From an uncultured virus (IMG/VR IMGVR_UViG_2775507210_000003) (taxonomy: Duplodnaviria > Heunggongvirae > Uroviricota > Caudoviricetes): a DNA stretch of 64,000 bases. Below, one piece after another: positions 3,721-60,289 of this stretch; the first letter of the stretch is position 1; every line of letters starts with the position of its first letter. The notes under the pieces are model-generated. The model saw nothing but the letters and a program-made list of their open reading frames with translations, was not told where the DNA came from and did no database searches. The position numbers were made by a program, and so were the translations under genes. The DNA is taken from the IMG/VR virus record IMGVR_UViG_2775507210_000003, one strand, 5' to 3'.

Positions 3721-3764
3721 CAGGTATTTCCTTTTTGGTGAGAGGTTTTGGTGCAGCACGGGGT

Positions 3765-7065: not shown

Positions 7066-7206
7066 AAGACGCCGGGCCGGGACCCTCTCACCACAAGATC
7101 ACCCCGGCCCAGCTACGACGACACACAGCACATGCACATCGGTCGTAGTCATAGGATAGGGCGTGCCCGCTTTTATGGCTACACCGTAAACAGGGGATTT
7201 ACGGTT

Positions 7207-36047: not shown

Positions 36048-36068
36048 TATTTTTTGGAGTCGTGCGTC

Positions 36069-36494
36069 ATGAGCTATTCCATCATAGGCCCAATCGCCGA
36101 GGGCGGTCTGAAGCTGCCCCTGTGCCTGTTCCAAGTGCCAGCTGGGTTCCCTTCGCCAGCGGCTGATCACATCGAGGCGCACATCTCCCTAGATGAAGTG
36201 CTCAACATCCGGGCACCTCATGTGTACCTGGTATCCATCACAGGTGAGAGCATGCAGGGCGCTGGGATCTTTGATGGAGACCTTGCGGTGGTCGACCGCT
36301 CGCTTGAGCCTGCGCACGGGAATATTGTTGTTGCGTTGCTGAACAACGACCCGGTGTGCAAGCGGCTGTGCATCCGAGGCAAGGACGTGATCCTGCTGTC
36401 CGAAAATCCTAAATACCCGCCGCGCTACGTTCTAGAAGGGGACGAGCTGTCGATCTGGGGCGTGATCACCGGCAGTGTACGCAGCCATGTCTAA
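36069..36494 (+). CDS. umuD: DNA polymerase V subunit UmuD/RulA
   Basis: VPAGFPSPAAD, GESM, CKRL. Confidence 0.92.
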   Translation: MSYSIIGPIAEGGLKLPLCLFQVPAGFPSPAADHIEAHISLDEVLNIRAPHVYLVSITGESMQGAGIFDGDLAVVDRSLEPAHGNIVVALLNNDPVCKRLCIRGKDVILLSENPKYPPRYVLEGDELSIWGVITGSVRSHV

Positions 36495-37761
36495 AGCGCC
36501 TGTGTTTGCATTGATTGATTGCAACTCGTTCTACGCATCGTGCGAGAGGGTGTTTCGACCGGACCTGGCCAAGGTGCCGATTGTCGTGCTGAGCAATAAC
36601 GACGGCTGTGTCATTGCACGCAGCTACGACGCGAAGCCCTTCGTGAAGATGGGGGAGCCGTACTTCCAGATCAAACACAAGCTCAAGCAGCATGGCATCG
36701 TGGCGTTCTCCTCGAACTACGCCCTGTACGGCGATATGAGCGAGCGGGTCATGACCCTGATCGAATCTATGGTCCCGGCGGTCGAGGTCTACAGTATCGA
36801 CGAAGCGTTCGCCGATCTGACCGGCATGATTGGTCTGGACGAATTGGGGCGGCGGATCCGCAGCCAGGTGCTTCGTTGCACTGGTATTCCTGTCGGCGTC
36901 GGTATTGCTGGCACCAAGACCCTGGCCAAGCTGGCGAACCATACGGCCAAGCGCCTGCAGGCGCAGACCGGTGGTGTGGTCAACATTTGCGACGCGTTCA
37001 AACGCGACTGGGTGCTACGTAACACGGCTGTATCCGAAGTGTGGGGTGTAGGCCGTCGCTTGAGCGCCCACTTTGAAGGCATGGGCATCAAGACAGCAAT
37101 GGACCTGGCCAAGGCTGACCCGTGGATGCTGCGCAAAAAATTCAGCGTGGTAGTCGAGATGACCGCTCGCGAGCTGGCCGGTACTCCTTGCCTGGAGCTC
37201 GATGAGCCCGATCCGCCAAAGCAGGAGATCTGCTGCAGCCGAATGTTCGGCAAGCGCCTGCAGGCATTGGCGCCAATCAAAGAGGCGGTGGCCACCTACA
37301 TGATGCGCGCCTCGGAAAAGCTGCGGGCGCAAGGCTCTGTATGCAAGAAGATCAGGGTGAGCATTCGCACTGGCATGTTCAGCCCTGATGAGGCCAAGTA
37401 CGCCAATGGGGTGCTCGTCGAGTTGCCGTACCCGACTGACGATGTACGGTTACTGACGAAGGCTGCGGTTGATTCGCTTGAGCGCGTGTTCCGTCCTGGC
37501 TTCAATTACAGCAAAGCTGAAGTCCTGCTGATGAACCTCAGTCAGCGTGGCCAATATACAGACGACCTGTTCGCTGCGGCTCAGCCCACTGAAGCCAGTC
37601 GGGTGATGGCGGTGCTTGACCAGATCAATGAACGATGGGGTAGGGGAACGCTTCGATCCGCTAGCGTGCCGGTGGATCCTGGCTGGGGGATGCGTCGAGA
37701 GATGATGAGTCGGAGTTATACAACACGGCTGGATGAACTTTGGAAGGTTAGTTGTAATTAA
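36487..37761 (+). CDS. umuC: DNA polymerase V subunit UmuC/RulB
   Basis: DCNSFYASCE, VLSNNDGC, YSIDE, W.MRR...S..YTT. Confidence 0.95.
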   Translation: MSKAPVFALIDCNSFYASCERVFRPDLAKVPIVVLSNNDGCVIARSYDAKPFVKMGEPYFQIKHKLKQHGIVAFSSNYALYGDMSERVMTLIESMVPAVEVYSIDEAFADLTGMIGLDELGRRIRSQVLRCTGIPVGVGIAGTKTLAKLANHTAKRLQAQTGGVVNICDAFKRDWVLRNTAVSEVWGVGRRLSAHFEGMGIKTAMDLAKADPWMLRKKFSVVVEMTARELAGTPCLELDEPDPPKQEICCSRMFGKRLQALAPIKEAVATYMMRASEKLRAQGSVCKKIRVSIRTGMFSPDEAKYANGVLVELPYPTDDVRLLTKAAVDSLERVFRPGFNYSKAEVLLMNLSQRGQYTDDLFAAAQPTEASRVMAVLDQINERWGRGTLRSASVPVDPGWGMRREMMSRSYTTRLDELWKVSCN

Positions 37762-38109
37762 TTCATGTGTGAGGCGTTTTTATTTGTCGTGCGTTAATAA
37801 TCTTGGAGTGGTTGATATGTGATGGCTTTGTATTTTGTAAGTTTGCTTGTGCGTCGAAAGTGCTAGCGGTTTCTGTGCTGATCAATTTTCTTTGGGCGCC
37901 AGTTGTGGATAATATTCAAAATGCTGGTCTGGTAAAGTTGCTGGGTTTATAAGTTGATATTCTTCATTGCTTGCTGCGTTAAAGGCTGGGTTTTGAGTGT
38001 GCGCTTGTTTTTGGTGTTATAATGTGCCGCTGTGGTGCGTTTTGGTATCACTTCATACTGCTCCAGTTTATCCCAGCGTAAGCCCCGGCCTACGCTGGAG
38101 TTTTAGGAG

Positions 38110-39522
38110 TTAAAAAAATAGTTTTATCATGTCTGAAGCTGCATTAAGTCCGCCTCTTCCATCGCTACCGCTTTTTGGTAGTGTGAATGTATATCGTGAA
38201 TCTTCCTGGTATGTTAGCTTTAGGTGCTTCCCTTCGTCGCTGATTTCAAAGCCTAGTTTTTCTAGTGTTGTGCGTGTTCGAGATGACATTTCGCGGTAGC
38301 CCCTTAATGTTTCTCTAATAGTATGAGATATTTCTGTCGAGATTTTTTTTGGCGCTGGTTGATTTGCTATGCTTTGGAGTATGTGGAGGCGTCTACTATC
38401 CTCTGGTACGCGCTCACATTGATCGCGTAAAGCGTCTAAGATAATCCACAGAATCTCGTCGTCAAAAAAGTCTTCTTCATCGCCGATATTTATTTGTAGT
38501 CCGCCTTGTACTGGGTTTTTGGATCGTAACGCTTTGGAAACTCCTTCCAGTCGATGAACTTCTCGCTTTAATGTTTCTATTTGTTCTTCTTTTGCTTTGA
38601 TCTCTGCATCAAAAGCTTCGATGTATGCGCTAACATCCAACGATTCTTCGCTTTTTAGTTTTTGAATAAGCTTCCGATTTTTTGTTTCTCTAAGCGCCTC
38701 TATCGAACACTCTCTCAATGGCATGCGTTGCGAGATCATGGATCTGAGTTCGGTAAATATTTCAACTTCAAAAGCTTTCGTGCTTTTGTCGCTGCTCTTT
38801 CTGTGTATTGATACGCCGCCATCAGAAGGCCAATAAATTCCTATTGCGCCTCCATATACATTTTGGGAGTTAACATATGTGCGTAGCTTGTTAGAAAAAG
38901 CTCTGTTTGGCTCAACTACTACATGGGCGAGCCCTGAAAGGCTTCGTGCTAATCGATCTGGTATGGCGGCACAAAATCCCGAGTGATACTTTGTTATGAG
39001 AACGATGGGAAGTCTATTTCCAGTTTCTCCATTAATCAGGTCAGCGGCGTACTGTAGGTCTATTAAGGTGTCTTTGAGTTCAACGTGCTCATGATTTACT
39101 TTGAGGTCGCCGTCAATCCCGCCGCCATAACGATCAATCAATCGGATGATGATTAGTGGTTTCTTTATTTCAGGGGTTTTGGTGGTTGCGATAAATGAGT
39201 TGCAGTAAGCTTTGACGTTTACCCATGCCTCGCCGGTTTGAGGTAGCGTAAGAAAACTTACAGTAGTCACCCAGGCGTGACTTTGATCTTTCTTGGTGTA
39301 GACGAAGGAGTGAATTTGCATTTTTTCGTCATCAGCATACTCGAATTCTATGGTTTCTCTTGGTGCGGTTTTTTTAAACTCAGCTACTTTAATATTTTCC
39401 AGTAATTGGGATTGCGTAAAATTCGTGTGAGGCGATTCGCTAATCCAATATAAACACTCTTCCAGAATCTGAATGGGAGTTGTTCCATTCGCAAGCGGAA
39501 AGTCTGTCGAGAAAATTTGCAT
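38110..39522 (-). CDS. Uncharacterised 470-aa protein, coiled coil plus HicA-like C-terminus
   Basis: Long AT-rich ORF; LGFEISDEGKHLKL...PKSGSDGRGGLN C-terminus. Confidence 0.7.
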   Translation of the reverse strand: MQIFSTDFPLANGTTPIQILEECLYWISESPHTNFTQSQLLENIKVAEFKKTAPRETIEFEYADDEKMQIHSFVYTKKDQSHAWVTTVSFLTLPQTGEAWVNVKAYCNSFIATTKTPEIKKPLIIIRLIDRYGGGIDGDLKVNHEHVELKDTLIDLQYAADLINGETGNRLPIVLITKYHSGFCAAIPDRLARSLSGLAHVVVEPNRAFSNKLRTYVNSQNVYGGAIGIYWPSDGGVSIHRKSSDKSTKAFEVEIFTELRSMISQRMPLRECSIEALRETKNRKLIQKLKSEESLDVSAYIEAFDAEIKAKEEQIETLKREVHRLEGVSKALRSKNPVQGGLQINIGDEEDFFDDEILWIILDALRDQCERVPEDSRRLHILQSIANQPAPKKISTEISHTIRETLRGYREMSSRTRTTLEKLGFEISDEGKHLKLTYQEDSRYTFTLPKSGSDGRGGLNAASDMIKLFF

Positions 39523-39652
39523 ACGTCGTCCTTGTGGTGGCTATTTGCTAGCAAATCTATCTGAGCCTCTCGGCAAGAGCAATCAGAAAAAACATCAAAT
39601 TCAAGTGCCGTCAGCTGTAGATCATAAGAGGTTCAGCCTCTACCACTCGGTC

Positions 39653-39885
39653 ATGCCAAAGCGGAGCGTTATCCGCATCGAAGCTGACAGCTTCACTCAC
39701 TACGGTTGCGAGATGGTGTTGTACAAAGGCGATGTAGTGGTTGCGCGTTCCTCTGATCGCGGTTTCGTTGTGCGTGACGATCTAGTGTGCGAATCCGACA
39801 GTGTGGATCAACTTGCTCCGGCCGCGGTGACTGAGTTCAAGGTCCGTTCCGTTCCGCTCCGATTTGCCATTCCTGGCAGGTGCGG
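39653..39885 (+). pseudogene. Relic homolog of the 12344-12649 gene
   Basis: Shares VVARSSDRGFVVRDD; truncated. Confidence 0.75.
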
Positions 39886-39887
39886 CT

Positions 39888-40031
39888 ATCCGGTGGGCGT
39901 TCGATGGCTTCCATTTTGAAGCTTTGGAAATTCGTTACAGCAACACGAACCAGTGGCAAGGAAAGGCCGATGTCACCGACGAGCAGGTAATCATGAACTG
40001 GGTGCCTGCAGCTTTGGGTGACCTATTTTGA
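39888..40031 (+). pseudogene. C-terminal fragment of a Dam-like MTase
   Basis: IRWAFDGFHFEALEIRYSNTNQWQGKADVTDEQVIMNWVPAALGDLF* aligns with the end of 34428-35222. Confidence 0.85.
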
Positions 40032-40275
40032 TGCGGTGCTGTTGCGTTTGGTGGGGCAAAAATCGGGCAATCTGTACGCCAATCTATGCCATTTAAAGCT
40101 GATTAGACGTTCTCAAGACTTATAAAGAAAAGCCCGGAAGCCACTTATTTAGTGGGACTTCCGGGCTTTTTCGTCAATGCCTGAGCATAATCGGGGTGTG
40201 AAAATTCTTTTCAGTCGTGAATACAATTAACGCGCAAGTTCAATAAAAATGTCACGTTGCCCAAGTGGGTAATTG

Positions 40276-40923
40276 TCATGTGAATTCATCGATAGCATCC
40301 AATAAGGTCGGCATATCAGTATAGGGGTTCAGATGGTGCGGTTTGGTGCGCCCCGTCTGAGCACTAGCTAATGCCCTTTCATTGATTCTTATTGCGCGTT
40401 GTCGTGCTTGTGCTATGTTGGGTTTTAAATGATTAAAAATGTCTAGGCTTGCCTTGTGGTAATCTTGTCCAATAGTGTCCTTGATGAGGCGCTTTAAATT
40501 ACTATTTGTGATTAAATCATCAAAGCAGCTGTAGGCAGTGGAGCTGTCAATAAAGTGTAATAATATCCATTGTTCAAAGCATACATTGGTTAGAGCGATA
40601 TTGATGTCGTTGTCTTTTGCTCTTTTGTATGCCTGGTCATGTAGTTTGTCGTCATACTTTGTTATGGATTCTCGGTCATAGACCACCCAGAATACATCAC
40701 CCTTAGGTGTTGAGTTGTTGCGCTTTTGGCTAATAGCAACATCTACCAGTTCGACAGGTGTGTTTTTTCTTGTCTTCTCAATGCATATTACGTTTCGCAA
40801 AGCCCGGTCTTCAAGGGTGCCTATGTACCCTGTGATATAGTTAGGTTCTGTTTTCGCTCCCTCACAATAAATATGCATTTTTCGGGGGAGCTTCCTAATT
40901 GCTTTAGCCCTAGGTCTAGGCAT
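40276..40923 (-). CDS. RloB-family (TOPRIM-like) protein
   Basis: IYCEG.KTE..Y, VVYDRE, N.CFE.W.LLHF, NPYT. Confidence 0.85.
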   Translation of the reverse strand: MPRPRAKAIRKLPRKMHIYCEGAKTEPNYITGYIGTLEDRALRNVICIEKTRKNTPVELVDVAISQKRNNSTPKGDVFWVVYDRESITKYDDKLHDQAYKRAKDNDINIALTNVCFEQWILLHFIDSSTAYSCFDDLITNSNLKRLIKDTIGQDYHKASLDIFNHLKPNIAQARQRAIRINERALASAQTGRTKPHHLNPYTDMPTLLDAIDEFT

Positions 40924-40939
40924 GACGACCTCGATGAAT

Positions 40940-42217
40940 TTAAAGATTGGCAGCGAAAAGTTCTTTAATTTTTTCGTATTTTATGTGGGGTAACGCGCCG
41001 AATCTACCTTCGTCATACCAGTCACTATAAGGGCTATTAGATTTCACCGTGCTCTTGTCAAATTCATCGAGGGAATAAAATGAGGTGGCGCCTTCACTTT
41101 TTTCGGTGAACCAGATTTGGTCTCTACGCATGAGTTGGGGGGACATAAGTTTTATGTCATGAGTGGTGAAAATCAACTGAGCGTTGTTTGTATTGACGGT
41201 TGGGTCGTTGAAGAGTCGAATTATAAGTTCGGCCAAGTGAGGATGGAAGCTACTGTCAAGCTCATCGACAATAAGAACCGATCCCAATAAAAATGAGGAG
41301 ATAAGTAGCGGTAGGAAACTAAAGAGGCGTTGAGTGCCGTACGACTCTTCGGTTAGTGGGATTTTTATCACTTTTCCTTCGTCTGATAAGTGAGAGAAGT
41401 TAAATTGATATTTGCTTCTATTGATTATCTCCTCTCTAATTTCCTTTGGGATATACTGTGGTATGCTTGCCTTGATTTCTTCTAGATGTGCGTTTTCTTT
41501 GCGCTCGATGCCAATGATGCCGGTATCAATCCCTGCTAGGAAATCGCTGATTGTATTTAAAGAGTCGTCATTATCTAAAAAACTTCCAGTGAATAACGGG
41601 GAGTTTGGCTTTATGTGCAGAAGTCTTTCAAAGTACTGGTAGACAGATCTTACAATTTCTGCTCCGGCCGCGTTATTGCCTGCTTTGCCAAGATAGCTAT
41701 TATTTGGAAAGAAAGGAATTCGTTTTTGGCCGCCCTTATAGTGGCTTCCAAAGCTAATTGTTTCCCAAGTGTCTTCGGGATCGCGCCTGAAAATATTTGC
41801 TTTCTGCCGGGTTGGATAGAAATCTAGACTTTCCGAAATAATTTTATATTTGGTGAAAGAGATCGCGTAATTGTATCTGAGGCCGTCGGCGTTTAGAAAT
41901 TCAACTTCAAAGCTGATTGGGGCATTTGCATTTTCCTTAGACAAGCAGTAGGGCTCGTAGCATGGTATTGCAGCTCCTTCCTTCAGGTCGTCAGTTGAGG
42001 AAATTAGAAAGTCTAATGCGACAAGTCCGAGAAGTATGTTGGATTTTCCCGACGCGTTGGCGCCAAAGATTCCAGCTGTTCGCAATATATTTACTTTATC
42101 GTTGTTAGTGGAGCATATGTTGCTAAGTAAGTGGCTCTTTGGATTCTCAACATTCATGCTGAGTGTTTGCTCATCGCGTATGGAGCGAAAATTGCCTACT
42201 GTAAAGTCGATGATCAC
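40940..42217 (-). CDS. RloA-like ABC/AAA ATPase
   Basis: NFRSI, GANASGKSN, ES.GT, IVDELDSSFHP, QLIFTTH, RRDQIWF; GTG start. Confidence 0.88.
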   Translation of the reverse strand: MIIDFTVGNFRSIRDEQTLSMNVENPKSHLLSNICSTNNDKVNILRTAGIFGANASGKSNILLGLVALDFLISSTDDLKEGAAIPCYEPYCLSKENANAPISFEVEFLNADGLRYNYAISFTKYKIISESLDFYPTRQKANIFRRDPEDTWETISFGSHYKGGQKRIPFFPNNSYLGKAGNNAAGAEIVRSVYQYFERLLHIKPNSPLFTGSFLDNDDSLNTISDFLAGIDTGIIGIERKENAHLEEIKASIPQYIPKEIREEIINRSKYQFNFSHLSDEGKVIKIPLTEESYGTQRLFSFLPLLISSFLLGSVLIVDELDSSFHPHLAELIIRLFNDPTVNTNNAQLIFTTHDIKLMSPQLMRRDQIWFTEKSEGATSFYSLDEFDKSTVKSNSPYSDWYDEGRFGALPHIKYEKIKELFAANL

Positions 42218-42316
42218 GTTAGCTTGCTTCCAGTCTTGGTGGCGTTTTTGAACAAAATTTTCCAAAAATCGCTTGAGTAAGCGATTAGACGCGTTTTCAT
42301 ACAAAAGTCAAGAATT

Positions 42317-42371
42317 TTTGCTTTGCTTTGCTTTGCTTTGCTTTGCTTTGCTTTGCTTTGCTTTGCTTTGC
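42317..42371. repeat. Simple sequence repeat (TTTGC)x11
   Basis: 11 perfect units read directly. Confidence 0.95.
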
Positions 42372-42673
42372 TGTGGTGCACTCAGGAGGCGCGGCGGCTG
42401 CGCGTGGACCAGGGAAACTGTGGTGCTTATCACGCTGTGTTGAGTTCCGCGCGGAGAAATCGCAGCCGGCCTCGAAGTTGTTGGCGCCCGAGTTGGCCTG
42501 GTACAAAAATGGGACAGCCGTTTATGGAGCAGTACAGGGGCTTTTGTTTTCAAGGTATTCAGGAAAGCAAAGCCCAATCTATCGCGGCTCTGATCATTCC
42601 GCTGCCAAATGCTGGCACGGGCCGCTCAGTAAGACTTGAGAGTGCTGCCGCATGCCGAGAAGCACCGGCAGGT

Positions 42674-42880
42674 TTAAGATCGCAAGCGCTGTATCCCAAC
42701 CCAGATCGCTTCGCTATGTATATCTAGTGTTGTGAGGGCTACCATTACATTGTCGTGGATGTGAGTCGAGCCACGCTGACTGACCCAGAGCGATACTTCT
42801 TCCAGCGCCGATCTGATGGCGGTTTGGTTCATCATCAGCAGTTCCAATGTATCGGCGGTAATAGTCGCTTTCTCGTCCAT
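42674..42880 (-). CDS. Small hypothetical protein
   Basis: 68-aa ORF with AGGA RBS. Confidence 0.55.
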   Translation of the reverse strand: MDEKATITADTLELLMMNQTAIRSALEEVSLWVSQRGSTHIHDNVMVALTTLDIHSEAIWVGIQRLRS

Positions 42881-43290
42881 GTGTGATGTCCTGAATCCTT
42901 TGAGAGGGAGCTTTTAGGGTAAATTTAGGGCAAATACCAAGCCGTACTAGGCTAAAGCGGGCCATGTGTACGATTGAGACTAGCCGCGTTTTTTGGCCTT
43001 TGGCGGCCCGCGCGCAAATAGCTGAGCTTGAATCGTTACGCGTCGAAGCGCTCGGGTGCCATGCTGAAGGGATCTAATAGCCTTGGTCGGCACTCCAGAC
43101 GAACATGCCTACGCTTCGCCAGCCCAGCCAAGCGTCTTTGACAGCAGCAGTGACGAGATCAGAGAGGGTGAAAATCTGTTCCGCAACGAATTTCCGTGTC
43201 CGCGTATTCAGCGGCTTGCAGAGGTGCTGAACCTCCACTGATGCGGAATCAATTTATCCATAACCTATTGAATTTATTAGGTTTGCAGAT

Positions 43291-43342
43291 CGGATTGCAA
43301 ATCCGTCTACGCCGGTTCGATTCCGACCTCGGCCTCCATATT
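43291..43342 (+). repeat. att core copy 2 (junction of prophages 1 and 2; tRNA-Cys 3' fragment)
   Basis: Identical to 179-230; lacks the tRNA 5' end. Confidence 0.95.
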
Positions 43343-43344
43343 TG

Positions 43345-43378
43345 AAAGCCCCGCAGATTAACGTCTGCGGGGCTTTTT
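43345..43378 (+). terminator. Rho-independent terminator (copy of 232-266)
   Basis: AAAGCCCCGCAGA-ttaacg-TCTGCGGGGCTTTTT. Confidence 0.8.
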
Positions 43379-43399
43379 CGTTGTGGTGCGGAAAGCCAA

Positions 43400-43436
43400 G
43401 AGTTCCGAAACTTTGAGGGTGGAGTTCCGAAACTTT
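43400..43436 (+). repeat. Putative integrase arm-type sites, prophage 2
   Basis: GAGTTCCGAAACTTT at 43400-43414 and 43422-43436. Confidence 0.65.
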
Positions 43437-43437
43437 C

Positions 43438-44487
43438 CTACTTCGAAGGCTTGGCGATGGCGCCGACCCGGCGGTAAACGCGCTCGGTAATGCCTTCCTT
43501 CGAGTGCCCAAGAAGCAAGCTGGCATCGCCCAAGTCTGTGATCTCCGAGGCCGCCTTGGGCCGGATATCGCGAAACTGGAACTGCGCGATCCGGTTGGCC
43601 AGCTCGGGCTGCTTCTCACTGATGGCCCTCAATCGGGCCGACTCCCGCGCCTCCTGCCACCGGTTGCGCAGCATCTCCCAGGACAGCCGCTTGCCGCTGG
43701 CGCTCAGGATGAAAAACGGTGACAGGTGGTCTCGGTTCCTGAGCTTAATTCGCTCCAGCAGCGTACCAAGGCTGTTGTTCACCCCATCCACTTCCAGGAT
43801 GATCCTCAGTCGCTTGCCCGTCTTGCCTTGGCTGACCAGCAGGTAGACCCCTTCTACATCGTCCTTCCGCATGGACAGTACATCCGCCGGCCTCTGGCCA
43901 GTCAGGTATGCCAGGTCCATCGCATCCTTCAGCTCCGCCGGGGCCTCCTCATACACCGCTCGCCATACCGCCTCGTTGGCATAGTAATCGCGCGGCTTCT
44001 CTTTGTTCTTCCTTACCCCCAAGCATGGATTCTGCTGCGTCGTCAGGCCCCATTCCCGGGCCGTGTTGAATACGTGCGACAGCAGCGCAATCTCGCGGTT
44101 GGCTCGGGTCTTCGCAGATCGACTATCTCGGTACTGCGCGATCATGGCCGGCGTGATGGCATCGATCGGCGCCGAGTCGAACACCGTGCGCAGCTGCTTC
44201 AGTTCGTAGATGTTGTCCTTCTGGGTCCGGGGCGCCTTCTTGGGCAGGATGTGCCGCTCGTACTGGTCGAAGATCCCCTTCATGGTTGTGAGCTCGGCCG
44301 GCACGGCTTTCGCCTCCAACTCGGCCCATTTGAGTTTGGCCTGGGCCAGATCGGTACCGAGGGGAATCTCCTTGCCAACCGGGTCGCGGTAGTAGTACCC
44401 GACCCATACCTTGCCGTTCTTCCTGGTGCGCTTGCGCCGGTAAACTCCCGGCGGCAGGTCGCGATTCTCGGTACTTCTGGGGCGCAT
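43438..44487 (-). CDS. int: Tyrosine recombinase, phage integrase
   Basis: TGQRPAD, RDIRPKAAS, LLGHS, VYRR; homolog of 327-1391. Confidence 0.95.
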   Translation of the reverse strand: MRPRSTENRDLPPGVYRRKRTRKNGKVWVGYYYRDPVGKEIPLGTDLAQAKLKWAELEAKAVPAELTTMKGIFDQYERHILPKKAPRTQKDNIYELKQLRTVFDSAPIDAITPAMIAQYRDSRSAKTRANREIALLSHVFNTAREWGLTTQQNPCLGVRKNKEKPRDYYANEAVWRAVYEEAPAELKDAMDLAYLTGQRPADVLSMRKDDVEGVYLLVSQGKTGKRLRIILEVDGVNNSLGTLLERIKLRNRDHLSPFFILSASGKRLSWEMLRNRWQEARESARLRAISEKQPELANRIAQFQFRDIRPKAASEITDLGDASLLLGHSKEGITERVYRRVGAIAKPSK

Positions 44488-44488
44488 T

Positions 44489-44731
44489 TCATTTCACTCG
44501 GGAAAAGTCAGGTGTCCATGCCGTGGTCGGCAAGGGTGGAGGTGTAACAGGCAGCACGCCTACCGTGACGCCTAGCTTCATGCGGGCGTACTGGCGGCCC
44601 ACCAGGGGGCGGCCGCCGCGGCTCTCGACAAAGTGCCAGTGACGCTCATTTAGCCAGCGGCGCTGCCAGCCCCTGGCCTTGTATCCGGTCAGTTCAGCCA
44701 GTTCTGTGTCCGAAAGGATTTCGGTTTCCAT
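44489..44731 (-). CDS. DUF4224-like putative excisionase
   Basis: LSDTELAELTGY...GRPLVGRQYARMKL. Confidence 0.75.
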   Translation of the reverse strand: METEILSDTELAELTGYKARGWQRRWLNERHWHFVESRGGRPLVGRQYARMKLGVTVGVLPVTPPPLPTTAWTPDFSRVK

Positions 44732-46167: not shown

Positions 46168-47091
46168 TTATGCGGCCTTCAGTAAGGCCTCAATCACGCG
46201 CTGCCCGGCCAGCGGCGGCACAGCGTTGCCAGCCATGTGCATGGTCAGCCGGTGGTTGTCCGGACGCAGGGTGTCAGCCGGGAACGACATCGCGGCCAGT
46301 GCCTCGCTGGCGCTGAGCATCCGCATGCGGTCGCCGTCGACCAAAGCCCAGCGATCAAGGGTGGTAATGGTGCCGATCGGCCGGCTTATGTCGCGCCCGG
46401 TGGTGCCAGAGCCTTTGCCGTAGTAGGGCATGATGAATCGCTCGCCGAAGCGCTGGCGCCCGTTGCGTACCCGATCAAGCGTAGCCTGGGCCCGGCCTGG
46501 TTTCTCGATCTGTGACCAACGCCCGGCATCGAAGTCGAGGAAGCTGGCTGCCGGCACATGTCGTTCCTGCGGCAGCTGCAGCATCAGCGGTGCCTTGCTG
46601 CGCGTCAGGACCATGAACAGGCGCACCCGGTGCTGCGACACGCCGAGGTCGGCGCAGTCCACGATGTGCGGAGCTGCCTGATATCCCAGCGCCTGTACCG
46701 CTTGCAGCCAGGCCGGGTAAAGCACCCAGTCGGTGAACTCCGACACGTTCTCGATCACCGCCGCTTGTGGCTGGTGGAACTCAAGGGCCGATACCGGCGC
46801 CCAGGCCGTGGATCGTGAAGCGTCGTGCTCCGGGTTTCCCGACTTCTTTCCCCGTGCCTTAGCGTGGCCCTGGCAGCAGGGCGATGCCAGCAGGATATCG
46901 TGCGCCGGCACCTGCTCCCAGCGTGCCTGGTGCAGGTCTTGGCAAGCGTGCTGCGTTTCGGGGTGGTTGGCGCTGTGCCATTCAACGGCTACCGGCCAGT
47001 GGTTTGCCGCCCAGAGAACCTGGACGCCTGCGGCGCGCGCGCCGGTGCTCCATCCGCCGAGGCCGGCGAACAGATCGATTGCTGTTGTCAT
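46168..47091 (-). CDS. DNA (cytosine-5) methyltransferase
   Basis: IDLFAGLGG, ASPCCQG, IENV, QHRVR, GNAV. Confidence 0.92.
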   Translation of the reverse strand: MTTAIDLFAGLGGWSTGARAAGVQVLWAANHWPVAVEWHSANHPETQHACQDLHQARWEQVPAHDILLASPCCQGHAKARGKKSGNPEHDASRSTAWAPVSALEFHQPQAAVIENVSEFTDWVLYPAWLQAVQALGYQAAPHIVDCADLGVSQHRVRLFMVLTRSKAPLMLQLPQERHVPAASFLDFDAGRWSQIEKPGRAQATLDRVRNGRQRFGERFIMPYYGKGSGTTGRDISRPIGTITTLDRWALVDGDRMRMLSASEALAAMSFPADTLRPDNHRLTMHMAGNAVPPLAGQRVIEALLKAA

Positions 47092-48245
47092 GTTTTCCTC
47101 GGGTAGGTCTTGGTCAGATTTCCATTGACGACATGCCCGCGCCGCAACACCAGATTGGCCAGGGCGGCGCGGTCTTTCTGACTGTGGCTGGCTTGAGTCA
47201 TCAGTCCGAAGTAGCTGTTGGCGGTTTCGCGAAGCTGCTCAGGTGGCGCCGCTGCGGTCCGCTTCATAGCCTGGGCCACTGATCGTTTCCGAGTAGTGCG
47301 GCGCCATGGCTTGATGACATGGCCAACGAAGTCGACGCCGCGCTCAACCGGCTGCAGGATGGTCTTCGTCGGGTTTAGCTTGGCGCCTAGCTTCGGCAGG
47401 AAGGCTTCGATCTCGGCCAGCCATGCGTTCAACTGCTGCGGTGATTCGTGCAGTAGAATGAAGTCATCGACGTAGCGGACGTAATGCCTGACCCTAAGCC
47501 GGTGCTTGCAGAATTGGTCCAGAGCATCGAGGTAGACGTTGGCGAAGAACTGCGATGACAGGTTGCCAATTGGCAGGCCAAGGTATTCAGGCTGCGCAGT
47601 GAGGCGTTTGTGCTGCGGAACTCGGTTGAACAGGTGCGCCGGGCTGCGGGTCAGATAATCCCAGCGCGGGTCGTGCATCAAGATCTGCTCGGCCAAGGCC
47701 AGCCACCAAGGCTCATCAATCTTGGCCGCCAGTTGCTGGCGTAGCACCTGCTTGTCGATAGCGACGAAGAAGTTGGCCAGGTCGCACTTCAGGTAGAAGA
47801 CCGGCTTCGACCAGTTCTGCGTGGCGCTGCGGATCTTCGACTCAAGACGCTTGGCGGCGTAAAGCGTGCCGCGCCCTGGGATGCAGGCACAGCTGTCCGC
47901 TATGAAGCTGGCGTAGAAGCGCGGGGCCACATGGTTGTACAGCAGGTGGTGAACGATCCGGTCCCGAAAGTCCGCTGCCCACACCTCCCGGGCCTTGGGT
48001 CGGGTTACGACGAAGCAAATAGAGCGGCCTGGCCGGTATTGGCCGGTTACCAAGTCGCTGTGTAGCGTTGTCAGGTTCCGTTCCAGGTTCATCTCGAAAG
48101 CCAGTGCGCTGGCGCTGTTGCGCTTGGAGCGTCGGCAGTCGTAGTAGGCCTGGACTAGATCGCTGAACGGGTATGGCGTTGAAGCTGCGGACGGGGCGGA
48201 CGCGGAGCTCGTTGTTCTTGTCGTTGTTGTTCTGATTGCCATCAT
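47088..48245 (-). CDS. DGR reverse transcriptase
   Basis: FRDRIVHH, LKCDLANFF, GLPIGNLSSQ (DGR-type SQ motif), YVRYVDD, VDFVG; next to TR and avd. Confidence 0.95.
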   Translation of the reverse strand: MMAIRTTTTRTTSSASAPSAASTPYPFSDLVQAYYDCRRSKRNSASALAFEMNLERNLTTLHSDLVTGQYRPGRSICFVVTRPKAREVWAADFRDRIVHHLLYNHVAPRFYASFIADSCACIPGRGTLYAAKRLESKIRSATQNWSKPVFYLKCDLANFFVAIDKQVLRQQLAAKIDEPWWLALAEQILMHDPRWDYLTRSPAHLFNRVPQHKRLTAQPEYLGLPIGNLSSQFFANVYLDALDQFCKHRLRVRHYVRYVDDFILLHESPQQLNAWLAEIEAFLPKLGAKLNPTKTILQPVERGVDFVGHVIKPWRRTTRKRSVAQAMKRTAAAPPEQLRETANSYFGLMTQASHSQKDRAALANLVLRRGHVVNGNLTKTYPRKT

Positions 48246-48285
48246 CGAAGTTCATGTTGAATGCGTTGTTGGCGGAGCGCTGCGA
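48185..48285 (-). repeat. DGR template repeat (TR)
   Basis: 101 bp; reads SQRSANNAFNMNFDDGNQNNNDKNNELRVRPVR with 9 AAC and 1 AAT codons. Confidence 0.95.
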
Positions 48286-48446
48286 CCAGTCGTGCTATCT
48301 ACGTCGCCCTGCCGAATCTTCAGCAGGGAAACTGCGCTGGACCTGCGCGACGCTTTAGGTCGGCGGTATCCAGGGTGCGCATGGCGGTGACCAAAGGTCA
48401 GCGGCACGACCAGGTTCAATTCGCACAGACCAGAAAGCCGTAACTC

Positions 48447-48803
48447 TCAGGTAGCGGGCGCGGTTGGGGTTGAGCGCTTCCAGGCGTTGGCCTGCTTTCC
48501 GATTGAGGTGGTGACCTCCATCGTCTTTGCATGTTGCGAGACGCTGATGAAGCGACTTTCTTTGAACAGTCGCATCAGGAACTCAATCACCTGGACTTTC
48601 TCGACGAGCTGGATCAGGTGAGGATGCTTATCCCGTGTGGCATTGGCCCGGGCGATCAACATCAGGACATCGATGCACTCATCGATGACGCGCTTGCCGA
48701 GTGACTGTTTCAGGTCGCGTGGTATGTTTCGGGTCAGGTTCGTGGCCATTTGCAGCAGGCCAAGCGAGGCCTTGTATATCTGCAGGTCCATGTGCATTGC
48801 CAT
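48447..48803 (-). CDS. avd: DGR accessory variability determinant (Avd-like four-helix bundle)
   Basis: 118 aa, basic; L.IY, PR..K..LG, IGKQANAWK; between target and TR. Confidence 0.85.
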   Translation of the reverse strand: MAMHMDLQIYKASLGLLQMATNLTRNIPRDLKQSLGKRVIDECIDVLMLIARANATRDKHPHLIQLVEKVQVIEFLMRLFKESRFISVSQHAKTMEVTTSIGKQANAWKRSTPTAPAT

Positions 48804-48825
48804 TCGGCTCGCCCTCCAAGAGCGA

Positions 48826-48843
48826 CCGGCCGCAAGCGGCCGG
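48826..48843. promoter_or_regulatory. GC hairpin downstream of VR1 (DGR target-recognition element)
   Basis: CCGGCCG-caag-CGGCCGG, 30 nt past VR1. Confidence 0.7.
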
Positions 48844-48857
48844 ATTAAATAAACGAA

Positions 48858-49472
48858 TCAATCAATGAGCGACCTGCGGACGGGGCGGACGCGGAGCTCG
48901 TAGTACTTGCCGTAGCCGTGCTGAGTGCCACCAACGAAGTGCATGCAGAACGCGTAGTCGGCGGAGCGCTGCGAGCTTGACCAGTACCAGCGTGCCTGGA
49001 AGGCTTCCGGAGAGTCTTCGCGGAATGCCACGATAGCTGTCTGCGTAGGCGATTCCTCGGTGTACAGCAGACCAGCCGGAAGGCTGTTGGGGTTATCGCC
49101 ATCACGGTTCCAGCAGTAGTTCTCGCGGCTGGTCGGCTTGAAGTGGCGGTACTGCAGCTCCTGCACGTCACGAGCAGGGATCGCCCAGTCGGTGAAGCCA
49201 CCGATATCCAGAGCCAGCACCTTCTGAGCCAGATCGCTGCCAGCGGCTGCCATGGACTCAGTGTTCGCTCGGCTGTCGGTGAAGCTGTCGGCGCCTTCGA
49301 TCTTGACGCCGTACTCGCCCCAGGCACCGACCAGTTCATGCGCTGCACCGGCAGTGATGTTGGCGTAGCGCTTACCACCCTCGACGGTGACGCCAGAGAA
49401 GAAGCCGCCCTGGAATGGCTGGCCGATCTCGGGAAGCTGTACTGCAGGTGCCACTTTCTCTACTGCGCTCAT
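48858..49472 (-). CDS. DGR target protein 1 (DUF1566/C-type-lectin-like)
   Basis: DW.IP...E, WYWSSSQ...LRVRPVRR C-terminus containing VR1. Confidence 0.88.
   Translation of the reverse strand: MSAVEKVAPAVQLPEIGQPFQGGFFSGVTVEGGKRYANITAGAAHELVGAWGEYGVKIEGADSFTDSRANTESMAAAGSDLAQKVLALDIGGFTDWAIPARDVQELQYRHFKPTSRENYCWNRDGDNPNSLPAGLLYTEESPTQTAIVAFREDSPEAFQARWYWSSSQRSADYAFCMHFVGGTQHGYGKYYELRVRPVRRSLID
48874..48974 (-). repeat. DGR variable repeat 1
   Basis: 16 mismatches to TR, all at TR adenines; no indels. Confidence 0.95.
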
Positions 49473-49537
49473 GTGCTGCTCCTTTCTGAAGGCAACAAAA
49501 AAGGCGCTGATGCGCCCTGATTTGAATGAATGAAGGA

Positions 49538-50137
49538 TTAAATAAACAACCTGCGGACGGGGCGGACGCGGAGCTCGCCGCCCTTGCCGATGAAGTACTG
49601 ATCGCCACCATCGAAGGTCATGGTGAATGCGTAGTAGGCGGAGCGCTGCGAGCTCGACCAGTAGTAGCAGTCCTGCGCGAACACCTCGGGGCAGTTCACC
49701 CAGCAGTGATACAGCTCGGCCGCTGCCGGCAGGTAGAAGTCGTGATGACCATCAGCCTTGTACTCAGCACAGGCGTTTGCGGCTGGGTGCTGGGTTTCTT
49801 CGTTGCAAAGCCATTCGGTGTTGGCCTTGCCGTCGGTCTTGCTGGTCGACTTCGATTCTTCCCGGTAGCCGCCCCATTCGTGGTCGCCAGCGTCGGCAGC
49901 AGCGATGATCAGGTAGTGCGCCGGCACATCACCACGGGCCGCTACGATGCCGCCGTTGATACCGCCCTGGCCCGGCCATGGCTTGCCGACAGCAGGGATA
50001 TCAGTAAGCGCTGTGGTTTCAGCCTTCATGGCGCCACTGGCTGCGAGGGCCGCACTGAGCACGGCCAGGGCTGGCATGGCTGCCTTTGGCGAGGAATGAA
50101 TGTTAAGGGTGAGGTTCTTAACGTAAATCGATTGCAT
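49538..50137 (-). CDS. DGR target protein 2 (DUF1566/C-type-lectin-like)
   Basis: DFYLPAAAEL, YYWSSSQ...LRVRPVRR containing VR2. Confidence 0.88.
   Translation of the reverse strand: MQSIYVKNLTLNIHSSPKAAMPALAVLSAALAASGAMKAETTALTDIPAVGKPWPGQGGINGGIVAARGDVPAHYLIIAAADAGDHEWGGYREESKSTSKTDGKANTEWLCNEETQHPAANACAEYKADGHHDFYLPAAAELYHCWVNCPEVFAQDCYYWSSSQRSAYYAFTMTFDGGDQYFIGKGGELRVRPVRRLFI
49551..49651 (-). repeat. DGR variable repeat 2
   Basis: 15 mismatches to TR, all at TR adenines; no indels. Confidence 0.95.
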
Positions 50138-50157
50138 GATGATTCCTCGGTGCGGGG

Positions 50158-50973
50158 TTACTTCGCGTCGAAAGTGCCAAGGGAGAGCGAAGCGGCCGCC
50201 CCTACTTTTTCATCGAGCACCGCCTTAAATTCTTGGGCGATCTCTTCGCGCTGCGCTTCTTCGCCAATCCAGCGCAGCTTCAGTACTGGCTGCGCGCCAC
50301 TGGTGATGACAGAAACGCGCAGTCGGATTACCTGCTCGCCCAGACCCTCGAACGGGATGACCTTGAAGTCCAGCCAGGCCGGCAAGGTTTCTTTGCTGCT
50401 GGCCTCGATCTGATCCATGGTGCTGCGGCTGGCGCGGGTCTCGCCAACTGCGTGATCACTTTCCGACGAGGCCTTCACAGTGATAGTGCGTACTGCAGCG
50501 ATTGCCTTGGCGATCGACATGCCGCTGCCATCTTCGGCCGTTGCCACCAGGTGCTGGTGCCAGTCTTCAATCCAGTCGCTCATGGCCTTCTGGTTCAGAG
50601 CCTGGCCACCCACCGCCTGTACAGCGGCGAACGCTGCCGAGGCCTTCAGGCGCAGCACGGCTCGATCATCGGCGTGGCCCGGGTTCAGTGGGGTGCCGAT
50701 GTTGAAGAGCACAACGCAGCTCATGGCGTCCTGGTCGATGAAGCCTTTGGCGTCAGGCGCTGCGCGCTCCACGACGTACCCGCTGAAGTCAGCCAGCGAA
50801 TGGGTGGAGTAGGTGCCACGGAAGCGGCTACGGCCTGCCTGGAAACGTTCCAGGTCGATAACTGTGGCGCTTTCAGGAACCAGAACGGTCGGGGTGTTGG
50901 TCGGCAGGACTTTGCCGGCGGCGGCCAAGGCGTTATCGGTGATGAGCTGGACTGCTTCTTTGCTGAGAGACAT
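50158..50973 (-). CDS. DUF2303/YfdQ family protein
   Basis: Paralog of 2902-3720. Confidence 0.8.
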   Translation of the reverse strand: MSLSKEAVQLITDNALAAAGKVLPTNTPTVLVPESATVIDLERFQAGRSRFRGTYSTHSLADFSGYVVERAAPDAKGFIDQDAMSCVVLFNIGTPLNPGHADDRAVLRLKASAAFAAVQAVGGQALNQKAMSDWIEDWHQHLVATAEDGSGMSIAKAIAAVRTITVKASSESDHAVGETRASRSTMDQIEASSKETLPAWLDFKVIPFEGLGEQVIRLRVSVITSGAQPVLKLRWIGEEAQREEIAQEFKAVLDEKVGAAASLSLGTFDAK

Positions 50974-52675: not shown

Positions 52676-52861
52676 TCAGGCAGCTTCTGGGCTGCACTTC
52701 TCCGCCTGGATTCGCTCGTAGATCTCTTCACGATGCACGGCGACCTCTGCCGGCGCTGCGATCCCCAGCTTCACCTGCTGGCCCTGGACGCTCAGCACGG
52801 TCACGCTGATGTCGTCATTGATGCGGATGGTTTCGCCAATGCGGCGGGTGAGTATCAACAT
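52676..52861 (-). CDS. csrA: CsrA/RsmA-family translational regulator (phage copy)
   Basis: [14 protein letters not shown]...[24 protein letters not shown]. Confidence 0.93.
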
Positions 52862-52920: not shown

Positions 52921-53142
52921 CTATTGCTGCGTGCGTAGCTCGCTGCGCGGAACCCAGCCTGCGCCGGTTTTCACCATGCAGCCGACAAACGCTGCATAGC
53001 GCGTCTCACGCTCGGTTTGCTGGCCGTACCAAGCGCAGGATGTTCGATTGATCAGGTTTCCGGCGATCACCAGGAACGCCAGAAAAGCGACCATCACCAA
53101 CAAAACGCCTTTTGCTGGGTTGGCGGAGAGCCAGGCGGTCAC
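52921..53142 (-). CDS. Small membrane protein
   Basis: One TM helix; coupled to the TerB-like gene. Confidence 0.6.
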   Translation of the reverse strand: MTAWLSANPAKGVLLVMVAFLAFLVIAGNLINRTSCAWYGQQTERETRYAAFVGCMVKTGAGWVPRSELRTQQ

Positions 53143-53579
53143 AGATAGTCCTTGAGGCGCACGTTCAGCTTCGCCGCTGCGCGTTCCAGCACCTCGATTT
53201 CCGCCGGCTCGATCTCGCCGTCTGACTCAGCAATGGTCAGCATGAAGTTGATGACCGTTTCGGCATCGCCAGGGGTGTGGGCCAGGTCGCCCAGCTCGCG
53301 CTCGGCGTTCATGCGGATGATGCGAGGGCCGCCCTCATTGAAGTCAGCCTTGGCCTTGTCGATCAGGTTGCCCAGTTCGGGCCCGAAGCCCTGCAGCTTC
53401 GGTTCGTTGCGCAGCAGGCGATCGATCTTGTCCAACTCAGCCGGCTCGATCTCGCCGTCAGCTGCGGCGACGTAAAAGCAGCCGTAAACGATGGCCTGCA
53501 GCAGGTCCCGGTTTTCCAGCTTGCCCAGTGCGGCGCGAGCCTCGCGGCCTTTGCCGAACAGCTTTTTCAGTCCCAACAT
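53139..53579 (-). CDS. TerB-family protein
   Basis: VAAADGEIEPAE and IAESDGEIEPAE repeats. Confidence 0.85.
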   Translation of the reverse strand: MLGLKKLFGKGREARAALGKLENRDLLQAIVYGCFYVAAADGEIEPAELDKIDRLLRNEPKLQGFGPELGNLIDKAKADFNEGGPRIIRMNAERELGDLAHTPGDAETVINFMLTIAESDGEIEPAEIEVLERAAAKLNVRLKDYL

Positions 53580-56021: not shown

Positions 56022-56873
56022 TTAAACCTTGCGAGCATTCCACACAAGAAGCACCTTGGCGTGGATCGTTACGTCGTCGATCCGTGCCTCTAGATCCTTG
56101 TTCTTAGGGTTGTCAGAGATCAGCCACACGTGATCTTCATCCTTCCGCTGCAAGCGCTTGATGAGCAGGTCGCCATGCCAGCTCAGCACGTATACCCCTT
56201 CACCTGCGTAGTCATTGACGCCACGGTCAACAATCACGGGATCCTTGTCGTTGATCGTGCCCTCCATGCTCTGGCCCCATCCAGTGATGATCGCCAGGGC
56301 TTGAGGGGAGGTGTAACTCACGCCCTTATCACGCAGCAGCTCCTCGCGAATGACCACGTTCCGGATTACTTCGTTGTACTCTGGAGGCAGCTGGCCATGG
56401 CCCATTGCGGCGCGTACGTCGTACTGTGGGATCGAGATATCGCCTTCTGTAGCTGTATTAACGGCAAGCAGATTGCTGCTGTCGCCTGACCCAGAAGGAT
56501 CAGCCTCTACAGCCTGGATTATTTTCCGGCGCGCCTCATCCGAAAGACCTTTGCCATGCTTCTCGAGCATGCGTTGAACCAAATCCGCCGATGACGTTGG
56601 TGCAGACTGACGACTGATCCCCGTCGGTCCAAGGTCACGCTTGCGCGGCGGCTCGTCTTTGCCTGAAAGAAGCCAGTCCACAGTTGTGTCGTAGCCATCT
56701 GCGATTGCTACTAGGTTCTCGTTTTTGATGTTCTCGGTGTCACCCGCAAACCACTGGCGAACGGCTTCGTAGCTGATGCCGCATGTGGTTGCAATGTCTC
56801 GTTTCACGCTACGAACGCCGATCGTGGGCTTCCTTGCGAGTACGAGTTTCGTGATTCGGTCAGTGATTTTCAT
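56022..56873 (-). CDS. CI-like repressor (HTH + S24 autopeptidase)
   Basis: CGISYEAVRQW HTH; AMG cleavage site, GQSME, IKRL. Confidence 0.9.
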   Translation of the reverse strand: MKITDRITKLVLARKPTIGVRSVKRDIATTCGISYEAVRQWFAGDTENIKNENLVAIADGYDTTVDWLLSGKDEPPRKRDLGPTGISRQSAPTSSADLVQRMLEKHGKGLSDEARRKIIQAVEADPSGSGDSSNLLAVNTATEGDISIPQYDVRAAMGHGQLPPEYNEVIRNVVIREELLRDKGVSYTSPQALAIITGWGQSMEGTINDKDPVIVDRGVNDYAGEGVYVLSWHGDLLIKRLQRKDEDHVWLISDNPKNKDLEARIDDVTIHAKVLLVWNARKV

Positions 56874-60089: not shown

Positions 60090-60289
60090 CCGATCCGATG
60101 CTGGCTGCGCCTGACCTCACTGAGTACCGCTGGGCGCTATACGCCTGCGGTCACCTGCTGGACCTCACCAATAAGCCCCAGCCGCCTGTTGGCCTGTACC
60201 GCGACGAAGCGTCGGCGCGAATTCATGGCCTGCGTATGTGGCCATCCACTTTCACTGTCATCGATCTTCACGGAGACGACCGCCCATGA
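60086..60289 (+). CDS. Phage hypothetical protein
   Basis: ATGA coupling at both ends. Confidence 0.55.
   Translation: MTDPMLAAPDLTEYRWALYACGHLLDLTNKPQPPVGLYRDEASARIHGLRMWPSTFTVIDLHGDDRP

Follow-up and report, generated by a model that had tools for sequence, protein, structure and literature searches.

A 64,000-nucleotide stretch of DNA from an uncultured virus (IMG/VR record IMGVR_UViG_2775507210_000003; called the window below) carries a diversity-generating retroelement (DGR) in which all of the cis- and trans-acting parts are present and intact, and which is almost certainly a real DGR of a kind that has already been catalogued. The element would diversify two small, stand-alone proteins of a lambdoid Pseudomonas prophage, encoded in its leftward early operon. 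Judging mainly from sequence, we favor the cell over the virion as the site of action of these two targets, with a probability of roughly 0.55. To our knowledge, DGRs are the only prokaryotic system of targeted protein hypervariation, and their textbook use in phages is the switching of tail-fiber specificity.

The retroelement and its repeats

The cassette lies on the minus strand and contains the following features, given in the order in which they are read (TR, template repeat; VR, variable repeat; RT, reverse transcriptase; all coordinates are those of the window):

49538-50137, minus strand: target2 (type B), 199 residues; lectin fold in residues 45-199, preceded by an N-terminal extension of about 40-44 residues with a hydrophobic helix at 17-33
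49551-49651, minus strand: VR2, 15 mismatches with the TR, at adenines only
49501-49518, minus strand: hairpin AGGGCGC-ATCA-GCGCCTT followed by a T-run, beginning 32 nt 3' of VR2
48858-49472, minus strand: target1 (type A), 204 residues; stand-alone Lcl_C/DUF1566 lectin-fold protein with neither an N-terminal extension nor a hydrophobic N-terminus
48874-48974, minus strand: VR1, 16 mismatches with the TR, at adenines only
48826-48843, minus strand: GC hairpin CCGGCCG-CTTG-CGGCCGG, beginning 30 nt 3' of VR1, with TTTATTTAATCC ahead of it
48844-48855 and 49524-49535: AT-rich motif (T/C)T(T/C)ATTTAATCC, between each VR and its hairpin, conserved in related loci
48447-48803, minus strand: accessory variability determinant (Avd), 118 residues; Pfam bAvd, 49.3 bits (cut-off 40); phrog_3206 'Avd protein of DGR', E-value 1.1e-29
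48283-48463, minus strand: RT-15 structured RNA (Rfam RF03018), 165.6 bits against a gathering score of 82, E-value 3.9e-41, full model 1-192
48185-48285, minus strand: TR, 101 nt, with 31 adenines and 9 AAC codons
47088-48245, minus strand: DGR reverse transcriptase, an open reading frame (ORF) of 385 residues; Pfam RVT_1, E-value 1.9e-17; phrog_1423 'Reverse transcriptase', E-value 1e-117

In a script comparison on the minus strand, the TR aligns without gaps to both VR1 and VR2, and all 31 of the mismatches fall on TR adenines (P = 1.3e-16 given composition). The changes consist of seven A>G, six A>T and three A>C in VR1, and seven A>G, six A>T and two A>C in VR2. The edges of the repeats are sharp: when 40 nt were added on each side, the flanks mismatched at all four bases. 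The three repeats share an identical, GC-rich 3' end of 26 nt, and the VRs finish 13-16 nt ahead of the stop codons of their targets. The TR contains 18 variable, adenine-containing codons, corresponding to about 1e17 protein variants, and AAG is the sole TR codon that can mutate to a stop. The 64-kb window contains no further VR beyond these repeats, as judged by a search in which every TR adenine was replaced by N and up to eight substitutions were allowed. The original prediction, made from the letters alone, had already given the coordinates of the repeats, the 16 and 15 mismatches, the 31 adenines in 101 nt and the adenine restriction characteristic of mutagenic retrohoming, all of which the script comparison reproduced. 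Its order of genes (target2, target1, avd, TR, RT) agrees with the ORF list and with a minus-strand reading of 46900-50300, the three peptides that it quoted for the two VRs and the template are present in the ORF translations, and the RT motifs that it called intact (GNLSSQ and YVDD) can be read in the 385-residue ORF.

An RT of the DGR type is defined by an [I/L/V]GxxxSQ motif together with a YxDD catalytic motif. The RT of the window retains IGNLSSQ and YVDD and is of this type by its motifs and by its match to phrog_1423. The accessory protein is identified by Pfam bAvd and phrog_3206; its score against the NCBIfam model DivGenRetAVD (NF033474) is 50.6 bits, under the 80-bit cut-off of that model. 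The RT-15 RNA runs from the final avd codons to the first bases of the TR, and its full-length covariance-model score, well over the gathering threshold, places it in the RT-15 class. A literature search for RT-15 found no paper.

Related loci were collected by an RT scan with one genome per species, which gave 227 relatives; the best 80 of these were fetched and, together with phages Cruim01 (PP179333) and SC_8_H2H8_2017 (MT121966) and the window itself, form an analyzed set of 83 loci (L numbers below), 78 of which bear VRs. All 12 of the related loci tested contain the RT-15 RNA, which in every case stops where the TR starts. The RT ORF of the window begins with an ATG inside the TR, and the two overlap by 61 nt (48185-48245). 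Because there is no start codon past the TR, the 3' end of the TR also codes for the N-terminus of the RT. In 77 of 78 related loci, too, the TR end and the extrapolated RT start overlap, by 35-64 nt.

The VRs, but not the TR, are followed by candidate homing signals. Both hairpins of the window have a 7-bp stem and a 4-nt loop, and none follows the TR. Among the clade loci, GC hairpins (a stem of at least 6 bp with at least 4 GC pairs) occur downstream of 84 of 179 VRs versus 3 of 78 TRs. The AT-rich motif shows the same bias: ATTTAATCC, with at most one mismatch, follows 71 of 179 VRs versus none of 78 TRs, and it may be part of an element that marks the VRs as recipients. The cassette thus combines, at the level of sequence, a GC-rich end common to TR and VRs with a stem-loop after the VRs only. 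Such features on the VR side are, as Guo et al. reportedly described in 2011, the expected target-recognition features of a DGR.

The target proteins

The two targets belong to the lectin-fold family Lcl_C (formerly DUF1566), which is their only Pfam match. Their direct scores of 29.8 and 30.2 bits lie below the 34.9-bit gathering cut-off; because these scores are sub-threshold, the assignment rests on the homologues, which carry PF07603, and on the fold. The prediction of stand-alone DUF1566/CLec-like proteins of about 200 residues held for size, fold and stand-alone character. In all, 14611 cluster representatives match at an E-value of at most 1e-3, which makes the family very large; many of these have 150-260 residues, and giant multi-repeat proteins are among them.

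An AlphaFold2 model of target2 from a 104-sequence alignment has a mean predicted local distance difference test score (pLDDT) of 91.1 and a predicted template modeling (TM) score of 0.79. It replaced a model from a shallow alignment of close homologues with a pLDDT of 51. In the better model, residues 45-199 reach a pLDDT of at least 97, and residues 17-33 form a detached helix with a pLDDT of about 75. The best match of the model to a solved structure in Foldseek is the C-terminal domain of Legionella Lcl (8q4e_A; E-value 3.4e-6, TM-score 0.75 on target); a Bacteroides fimbrial protein and C-type lectins rank next. Lcl itself is a secreted collagen-like adhesin and is not known to be a DGR target. 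In the model, the VR is located at the C-terminus of a C-type-lectin-fold protein. Among viral models (BFVD), the fold is found in small stand-alone proteins, including a protein of phage D3.

Two paralogous types can be distinguished among the seven targets of three phages (the window, Cruim01 and SC_8_H2H8). In type A the domain begins at the start of the protein and contains a 41-residue insertion; cysteines are not conserved among the targets. An allele of target2 (P0001) differs from it at 5 of the 162 residues upstream of the VR stretch (1-162) and at 11 of the 34 residues within it (163-196), and near-identical alleles thus differ mainly in the VR. NCBIfam has no family for the targets. 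PADLOC gave no matches for the targets, Avd or the DUF2303 protein encoded nearby, the only matches being to generic RT and methyltransferase models and a weak one to a mad1 helix-turn-helix (HTH) model; by this measure the targets do not belong to a known defense system. A 203-residue gene near a DUF2303 gene elsewhere in the window (2222-2833) was considered as a relative of target2 and proved to be unrelated (E-value 2.2).

The cassette in related phages

The original prediction regarded small, non-tail targets as unusual. This view did not survive the comparison: the same small-target layout is found in 78 of the 83 loci, in isolated phages (at least nine distinct ones in the clade), in the announcement of phage Magia and in Table S1 of Wu et al. 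2018. The cassette is a member of an RT-15/phage-Magia clade that is common and already catalogued, and the window adds no new architecture.

Within the best 80 relatives, RT identity to the window is 75-91% in Pseudomonas and 62-72% in Burkholderiales, Rhodocyclales and others. IGNLSSQ and YVDD are invariant, and the aligned part of the RT has no internal stop, in all 83 loci. Of the VR-bearing loci, 4 have one VR, 49 have two, 23 have three and 2 have four; four of the five loci with no VR end just upstream of the RT, and in the fifth (L074) none was found. The 179 VRs all lie upstream on the RT strand; for 148 of them the distance is at most 2.3 kb, and for the other 31 it is 2.3-9.2 kb. 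Adenine restriction holds throughout, with TR adenines accounting for 2267 of 2361 mismatches (96%) in the 179 TR-VR pairs. The target ORFs, by first-start calls, range from 60 to 381 residues, the bulk being 117-230 residues, and many beta-proteobacterial targets have only 117-125 residues, with the lectin domain beginning at about residue 10.

Over the cassette, the DNA of the isolated phages Cruim01 and SC_8_H2H8 is about 80% identical to that of the window; the gene order agrees, and RT identity is 86%. In both phages, all TR-VR mismatches inside the repeat are at adenines. Each phage also has its own non-adenine changes that are common to the TR and every VR: in SC_8_H2H8 the TR and both VRs share CTCAGCC and CCGTGTCC, and in Cruim01 the TR shares CTTCGCG with each of its three VRs. 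These lineage-specific changes are best explained by real transfer of sequence from TR to VR. Together with the concentration of allele differences in the VR, they are indirect evidence that mutagenic retrohoming may be ongoing. The third VR of Cruim01 is in a 199-residue gene about 8 kb upstream, roughly 1.7 kb downstream of the repressor. In the Cruim01 record the RT is labeled 'retron-type' and the targets are hypothetical, and the Cruim01 paper contains no occurrence of DGR, retron or reverse transcriptase.

Some relatives have targets and no RT. In phage Medea1 (L003, MW862109), positions 6866-8760 contain type-B and type-A targets with intact VR-like ends, and a 164-residue gene replaces avd, TR and RT. 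Only a 24-residue RT remnant is left; replacement has removed the DGR of Medea1 and left it with frozen targets. In phi_D3 (L005, 5665-6342) and PAN70 (L004, 6863-7459), target homologues are found a few genes downstream of the repressor and on its strand, again with no RT. The D3 homologue ends with a GC-rich CGTGTCCGCCCCGTCCGCA element, and may be a fossil target or a target that is used in trans.

With Medea1 (and its RT remnant), D3 and PAN70 as precedents, one can imagine that the cassette of the window is itself a recently inactivated fossil, in which the VRs are frozen and the proteins work with fixed sequences. This is very improbable. The RT ORF and its motifs, Avd, the full-length RT-15 RNA and both hairpins are intact, the TR is unmutated with its nine AAC codons, and neither VR has a single non-adenine mismatch.

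Two further observations can be added. tRNA genes are located 2-3.5 kb downstream of the RT in L065 (3472-3542) and L029 (4964-5053), which fits with a DGR near the integrase/att end of those prophages. Two phage records, OK094664 ('Shewanella phage vB_Sb_QDWS') and OP650936 ('Hujiaoplasma phage zrk29-1'), have the same length (47902) and identical RT match statistics, and look like one sequence under two hosts.

Position of the cassette in the prophage

The cassette is flanked by the following genes:

43438-44487, minus strand: integrase (Pfam/PHROGs), at the distal end of the leftward operon
44489-44731, minus strand: DUF4224 excisionase (Pfam/PHROGs), at the distal end of the leftward operon
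46168-47091, minus strand: C5 cytosine DNA methyltransferase (Pfam DNA_methylase, E-value 1.3e-34), whose start overlaps the RT stop
56022-56873, minus strand: CI-like repressor (phrog_4, E-value 1.4e-41; phrog_6201), from which Ant and a replication O-like gene diverge rightward

Two unknown genes separate the excisionase from the methyltransferase. Between the DGR and the repressor, the minus strand encodes DUF2303, phrog_204, an HTH protein, a CsrA-like protein and a TerB-like protein. The DGR cassette is therefore part of the leftward (PL-type) early arm of the lambdoid prophage, the late genes of which are past the right end of the window. A location between integrase and repressor, apart from any tail gene, had been claimed at the outset, and the Pfam/PHROGs map bears it out, since the tail genes within the window belong to another prophage. 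The tail genes at 21-33 kb were considered as part of the DGR phage and rejected; they are in a separate prophage at tRNA-Cys that has its own integrase. The targets thus include no Mtd homologue and no tail-module protein, and for this reason the system is not a tropism switch of the BPP-1 type.

In the complete genome of Cruim01, the arrangement is as follows. The structural and tail module occupies 1-23.7 kb (1-24.8 kb including lysis) on the plus strand, and the integrase follows at 25.0-26.1 kb. The RT (33.4-34.5 kb) and the targets (35.1-36.4 and 43.6-44.2 kb) are on the minus strand, beyond lysis, attP and integrase. Across the survey, 36 of 83 loci have an integrase homologue downstream of the RT, at a distance of 1.3-8.8 kb; in 33 of these it is on the same strand. 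Genes found upstream of the RT and on its strand include ERF, YqaJ or SSB (11 loci) and a CI-like repressor (8 loci). Among 75 loci, the window included, the first gene past the RT encodes a DNA methyltransferase 14 times and an integrase 6 times; 41 of these genes have no Pfam family.

Where the targets may act

Action in the cell is made plausible by several features of the clade. The early-operon position is conserved; both targets of the window lack a lipobox, and type A lacks a signal peptide; the many beta-proteobacterial targets of 117-125 residues are little more than the domain; and the RT-less Medea1, PAN70 and D3 keep homologues in the early or immunity-proximal region. With their first cysteine at about residue 119 (target1) and about residue 111 (target2), and none in the first 100 residues of either, the two proteins are not surface lipoproteins of the LdtA/TvpA type. 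The larger share of the probability given to intracellular action falls to anti-defense or host takeover, which is doubtful when taken by itself, and the smaller share to superinfection exclusion, which is more doubtful. We tentatively suggest a specific form, in which the targets would be signal-less, antibody-like binders made from the earliest operon that neutralize strain-variable host defense proteins or rival-phage proteins in the cell. Each phage would have 2-4 paralogues with about 1e17 possible tips each, and the fixed pair of type B and type A could even form a two-chain binder.

Literature searches (listings and selected passages) found no paper testing the role of small DUF1566 targets. 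The preprint by Roux et al. has no occurrence of DUF1566 or superinfection, and the passages of Belalov et al. 2023 on DGR-based immunity treat it in general and make no mention of PF07603/DUF1566.

A number of observations pull away from an intracellular site or loosen its support. Control of the DGR operon by CI would follow from gene order, and a promoter scan of 46-57.5 kb returned one promoter-like site versus 3.9 expected by chance (the corresponding terminator scan returned 9 terminator-like sites versus 9.7 expected). Of the 19 listed sequencing runs that contain part of the stretch, none is RNA; all consist of metagenome contigs, and these cover no more than 0.45 of the sampled words. 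Four of the runs, placed on the region, gave only short fragments of relatives. The lipobox test across the clade, with matches in 0 of 178 clade target ORFs, used a simple pattern on first-start ORF calls that are often over-extended. Phage virion proteins also lack signal peptides. Two more observations, the company that the lectin fold keeps and the N-terminus of target2, are best discussed with the rival explanations that they support.

The first of these explanations is that the targets are virion-associated accessory adhesins, encoded off the tail module, which would dock on fibers or on the baseplate and would, like Mtd in BPP-1, diversify the host range. Among the BFVD models, the fold also ends long Peptidase S74, collagen-repeat and tail fiber proteins (ranks 2, 8 and 14), and phrog_4245 aligns the targets to positions 409-581 of its 583-position profile, that is, at its C-terminus. 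The lectin domain thus has precedents for use in virions. In addition, phage DGRs classically diversify receptor-binding proteins (Wu et al. 2018, PMC5758913), the conserved N-terminal beta-hairpin and helix of type B could be a docking module, and the authors of the Magia announcement suggested host-range adaptation (PMC7883833). However, type A has no N-terminal module, and many of the beta-proteobacterial targets have only 117-125 residues, with the lectin domain from about residue 10 onward. In the complete genome of Cruim01 the targets are in the early operon, on the opposite strand and beyond lysis, attP and integrase, and an off-tail position is reported for all 78 VR-bearing loci. The literature listings searched contain no report of such proteins in virions. 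We consider a virion adhesin unlikely.

Quite unlikely, and slightly harder to sustain, is the proposal of export to the periplasm or envelope for the type-B target at least. There it would serve as a hypervariable factor of superinfection exclusion, which would bind the injection or tail-tip proteins of incoming phages or mask receptors. Residues 19-36 of target2 form an Ala/Leu-rich hydrophobic helix that follows K18, has a Kyte-Doolittle value of 1.97 over 15 residues and leads into SGA|M, so that the N-terminal helix could be a Sec signal peptide; the detachment of helix 17-33 in the AlphaFold2 model (pLDDT about 75) is compatible with this. The third target of Cruim01 and the homologues in D3 and PAN70 are just downstream of the repressor, a rex-like position that is typical of exclusion genes expressed in lysogens, and periplasmic DGR-based exclusion is discussed as a hypothesis in Belalov et al. 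2023. On the other side, the homologous segment in sister subclades is a beta-hairpin followed by a charged amphipathic helix (for example ADLLADLWIRKIMKE and EAIKAEHSRIGEMIAAFEAQ). A conserved beta-hairpin ahead of the segment is unlike a signal peptide, and the n-region would be 17-20 residues long. The cysteines are not conserved, and type A has no such segment. A Protein Atlas search with the target2 N-terminus gave no usable match.

Other features of the window

The DGR prophage also carries genes that are probably morons: the CsrA-like regulator and the TerB-like ('tellurite resistance') gene of the leftward operon (52676-52861 and 53139-53579). Its replication/early-right region (60238-62305) contains an HNH endonuclease and a second integrase-family gene (457 residues, plus strand).

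The other prophage, which is unrelated, spans 153-35222 and begins with tRNA-Cys (153-226), an integrase (327-1391) and DUF2303 (2902-3759). Its genes include primase, portal, protease, capsid, baseplate, spanin and methyltransferase genes, together with a tail fiber gene (23841-25730) and a tape measure gene (28388-31009); no TR-like sequence occurs in this prophage (153-35222). Between the two prophages are umuD/umuC-like genes (36054-37761). The segment at 38-42 kb (within 36054-43400) has a low GC content of 42-45% and no long ORFs with high GC at third codon positions.

Proposed mechanism and significance

By analogy with BPP-1, a transcript containing the RT-15 leader and the TR would be reverse-transcribed by a complex of RT and Avd, which would misincorporate nucleotides opposite template adenines. 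The mutated cDNA would then replace VR1 and VR2. Homing would be guided by the common GC-rich 3' end, and probably also by two elements present after each VR and absent after the TR, the AT-rich motif and the GC hairpin. In this way, two paralogous, stand-alone proteins with a C-type-lectin fold would have about 18 codons of their ligand-binding face rewritten. Rather than tail receptor-binding proteins, the targets would be early-expressed, non-virion binders in the infected or lysogenic cell, and their partners would presumably be variable as well: host defense proteins, takeover targets or the proteins of rival phages.

The significance lies in a widespread clade that diversifies tiny, free-standing lectin-fold proteins in the early/immunity region of temperate phages, not tail fibers. 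If the targets do act in the cell, the DGR would serve an intracellular arms race and not adsorption, and would provide a natural library of intracellular binders for counter-defense or inter-phage warfare, as well as a compact scaffold of about 120-200 residues for engineered binders. The value of this case is in its well-defined parts and in its culturable relatives, Cruim01 and Magia.

Comparison with known systems

The DGR of Bordetella phage BPP-1 (mtd-avd-TR-brt), whose features are said to have been described by Liu et al. in 2002 and Doulatov et al. in 2004, resembles that of the window in the order target-avd-TR-RT, in adenine mutagenesis, in a C-terminal VR on a C-type-lectin fold, and in a GC-rich 3' end with a downstream hairpin. 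The RT of a BPP-like phage is only 32% identical to that of the window. The target is different: Mtd is a protein of the tail-fiber tip, is encoded in the tail module and has a VR of the CLec1 class. The spacer RNA of BPP-1, studied by Handa et al. in 2018, reportedly lies 3' of the TR; in the window, unlike BPP-1, the structured RNA (RT-15) is on the 5' side of the TR, and the start of the RT ORF is within the TR. The BPP-1 system is also summarized in Wu et al. 2018 (PMC5758913).

Within the catalogue of that paper (PMC5758913), category 'd' comprises DUF1566 targets with CLec2 VRs, accounts for 14% of DGRs and consists for about half of short, DUF1566-only proteins. Two adjacent short DUF1566 targets followed by avd, TR and RT place the cassette of the window in this category and in architecture B1. 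The category is exemplified there by the Legionella DGR, with LdtA as a surface lipoprotein. The L. pneumophila protein thus differs in its surface lipoprotein character from the targets of the window, which have no lipobox.

Magia, a phage of Burkholderia cenocepacia (MT701587), is compared through its RT match and its announcement. Its RT is 65% identical over 92% of the RT; identity drops to 34% at the next phage RT, which is not a member of the clade. Magia is temperate like the phage of the window, but it is a myophage of Burkholderia with one adjacent and one remote target. The announcement (Gafford-Gaby et al. 2021, PMC7883833) mentions a potential DGR whose targets are short reading frames, and suggests a role in adaptation or host-range change.

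The closest known systems are entries in Table S1 of Wu et al. 2018 (PMC5758913). Two of these have three targets: #42, from Janthinobacterium sp. PAMC 25724, and #36, from Pseudomonas sp. GM67, in which the third target is at -8.9 kb; in having a third target, GM67 is like Cruim01. Entry #35, from Pseudomonas sp. M47T1, is nearer still to the window. Its order is TG-TG-AVD-TR-RT (architecture B1, two adjacent targets), the targets are DUF1566 proteins (d1) with C-terminal CLec2 VRs, the TR has 30 adenines, the VRs have 15 and 15 differences with 0 non-A substitutions, and the stem-loops are described as 'strong, strong'. Judging by this relative, the VRs of the window are probably of the CLec2 class. 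The context entry for #35 consists only of '1 phage homolog [-5543]', with no comment in the table on early-operon position or target function. The contig of #35 is locus L006 of the survey, and the L006 RT is 91% identical to that of the window. Feature for feature the two layouts are alike, in different prophages and with different VR alleles.

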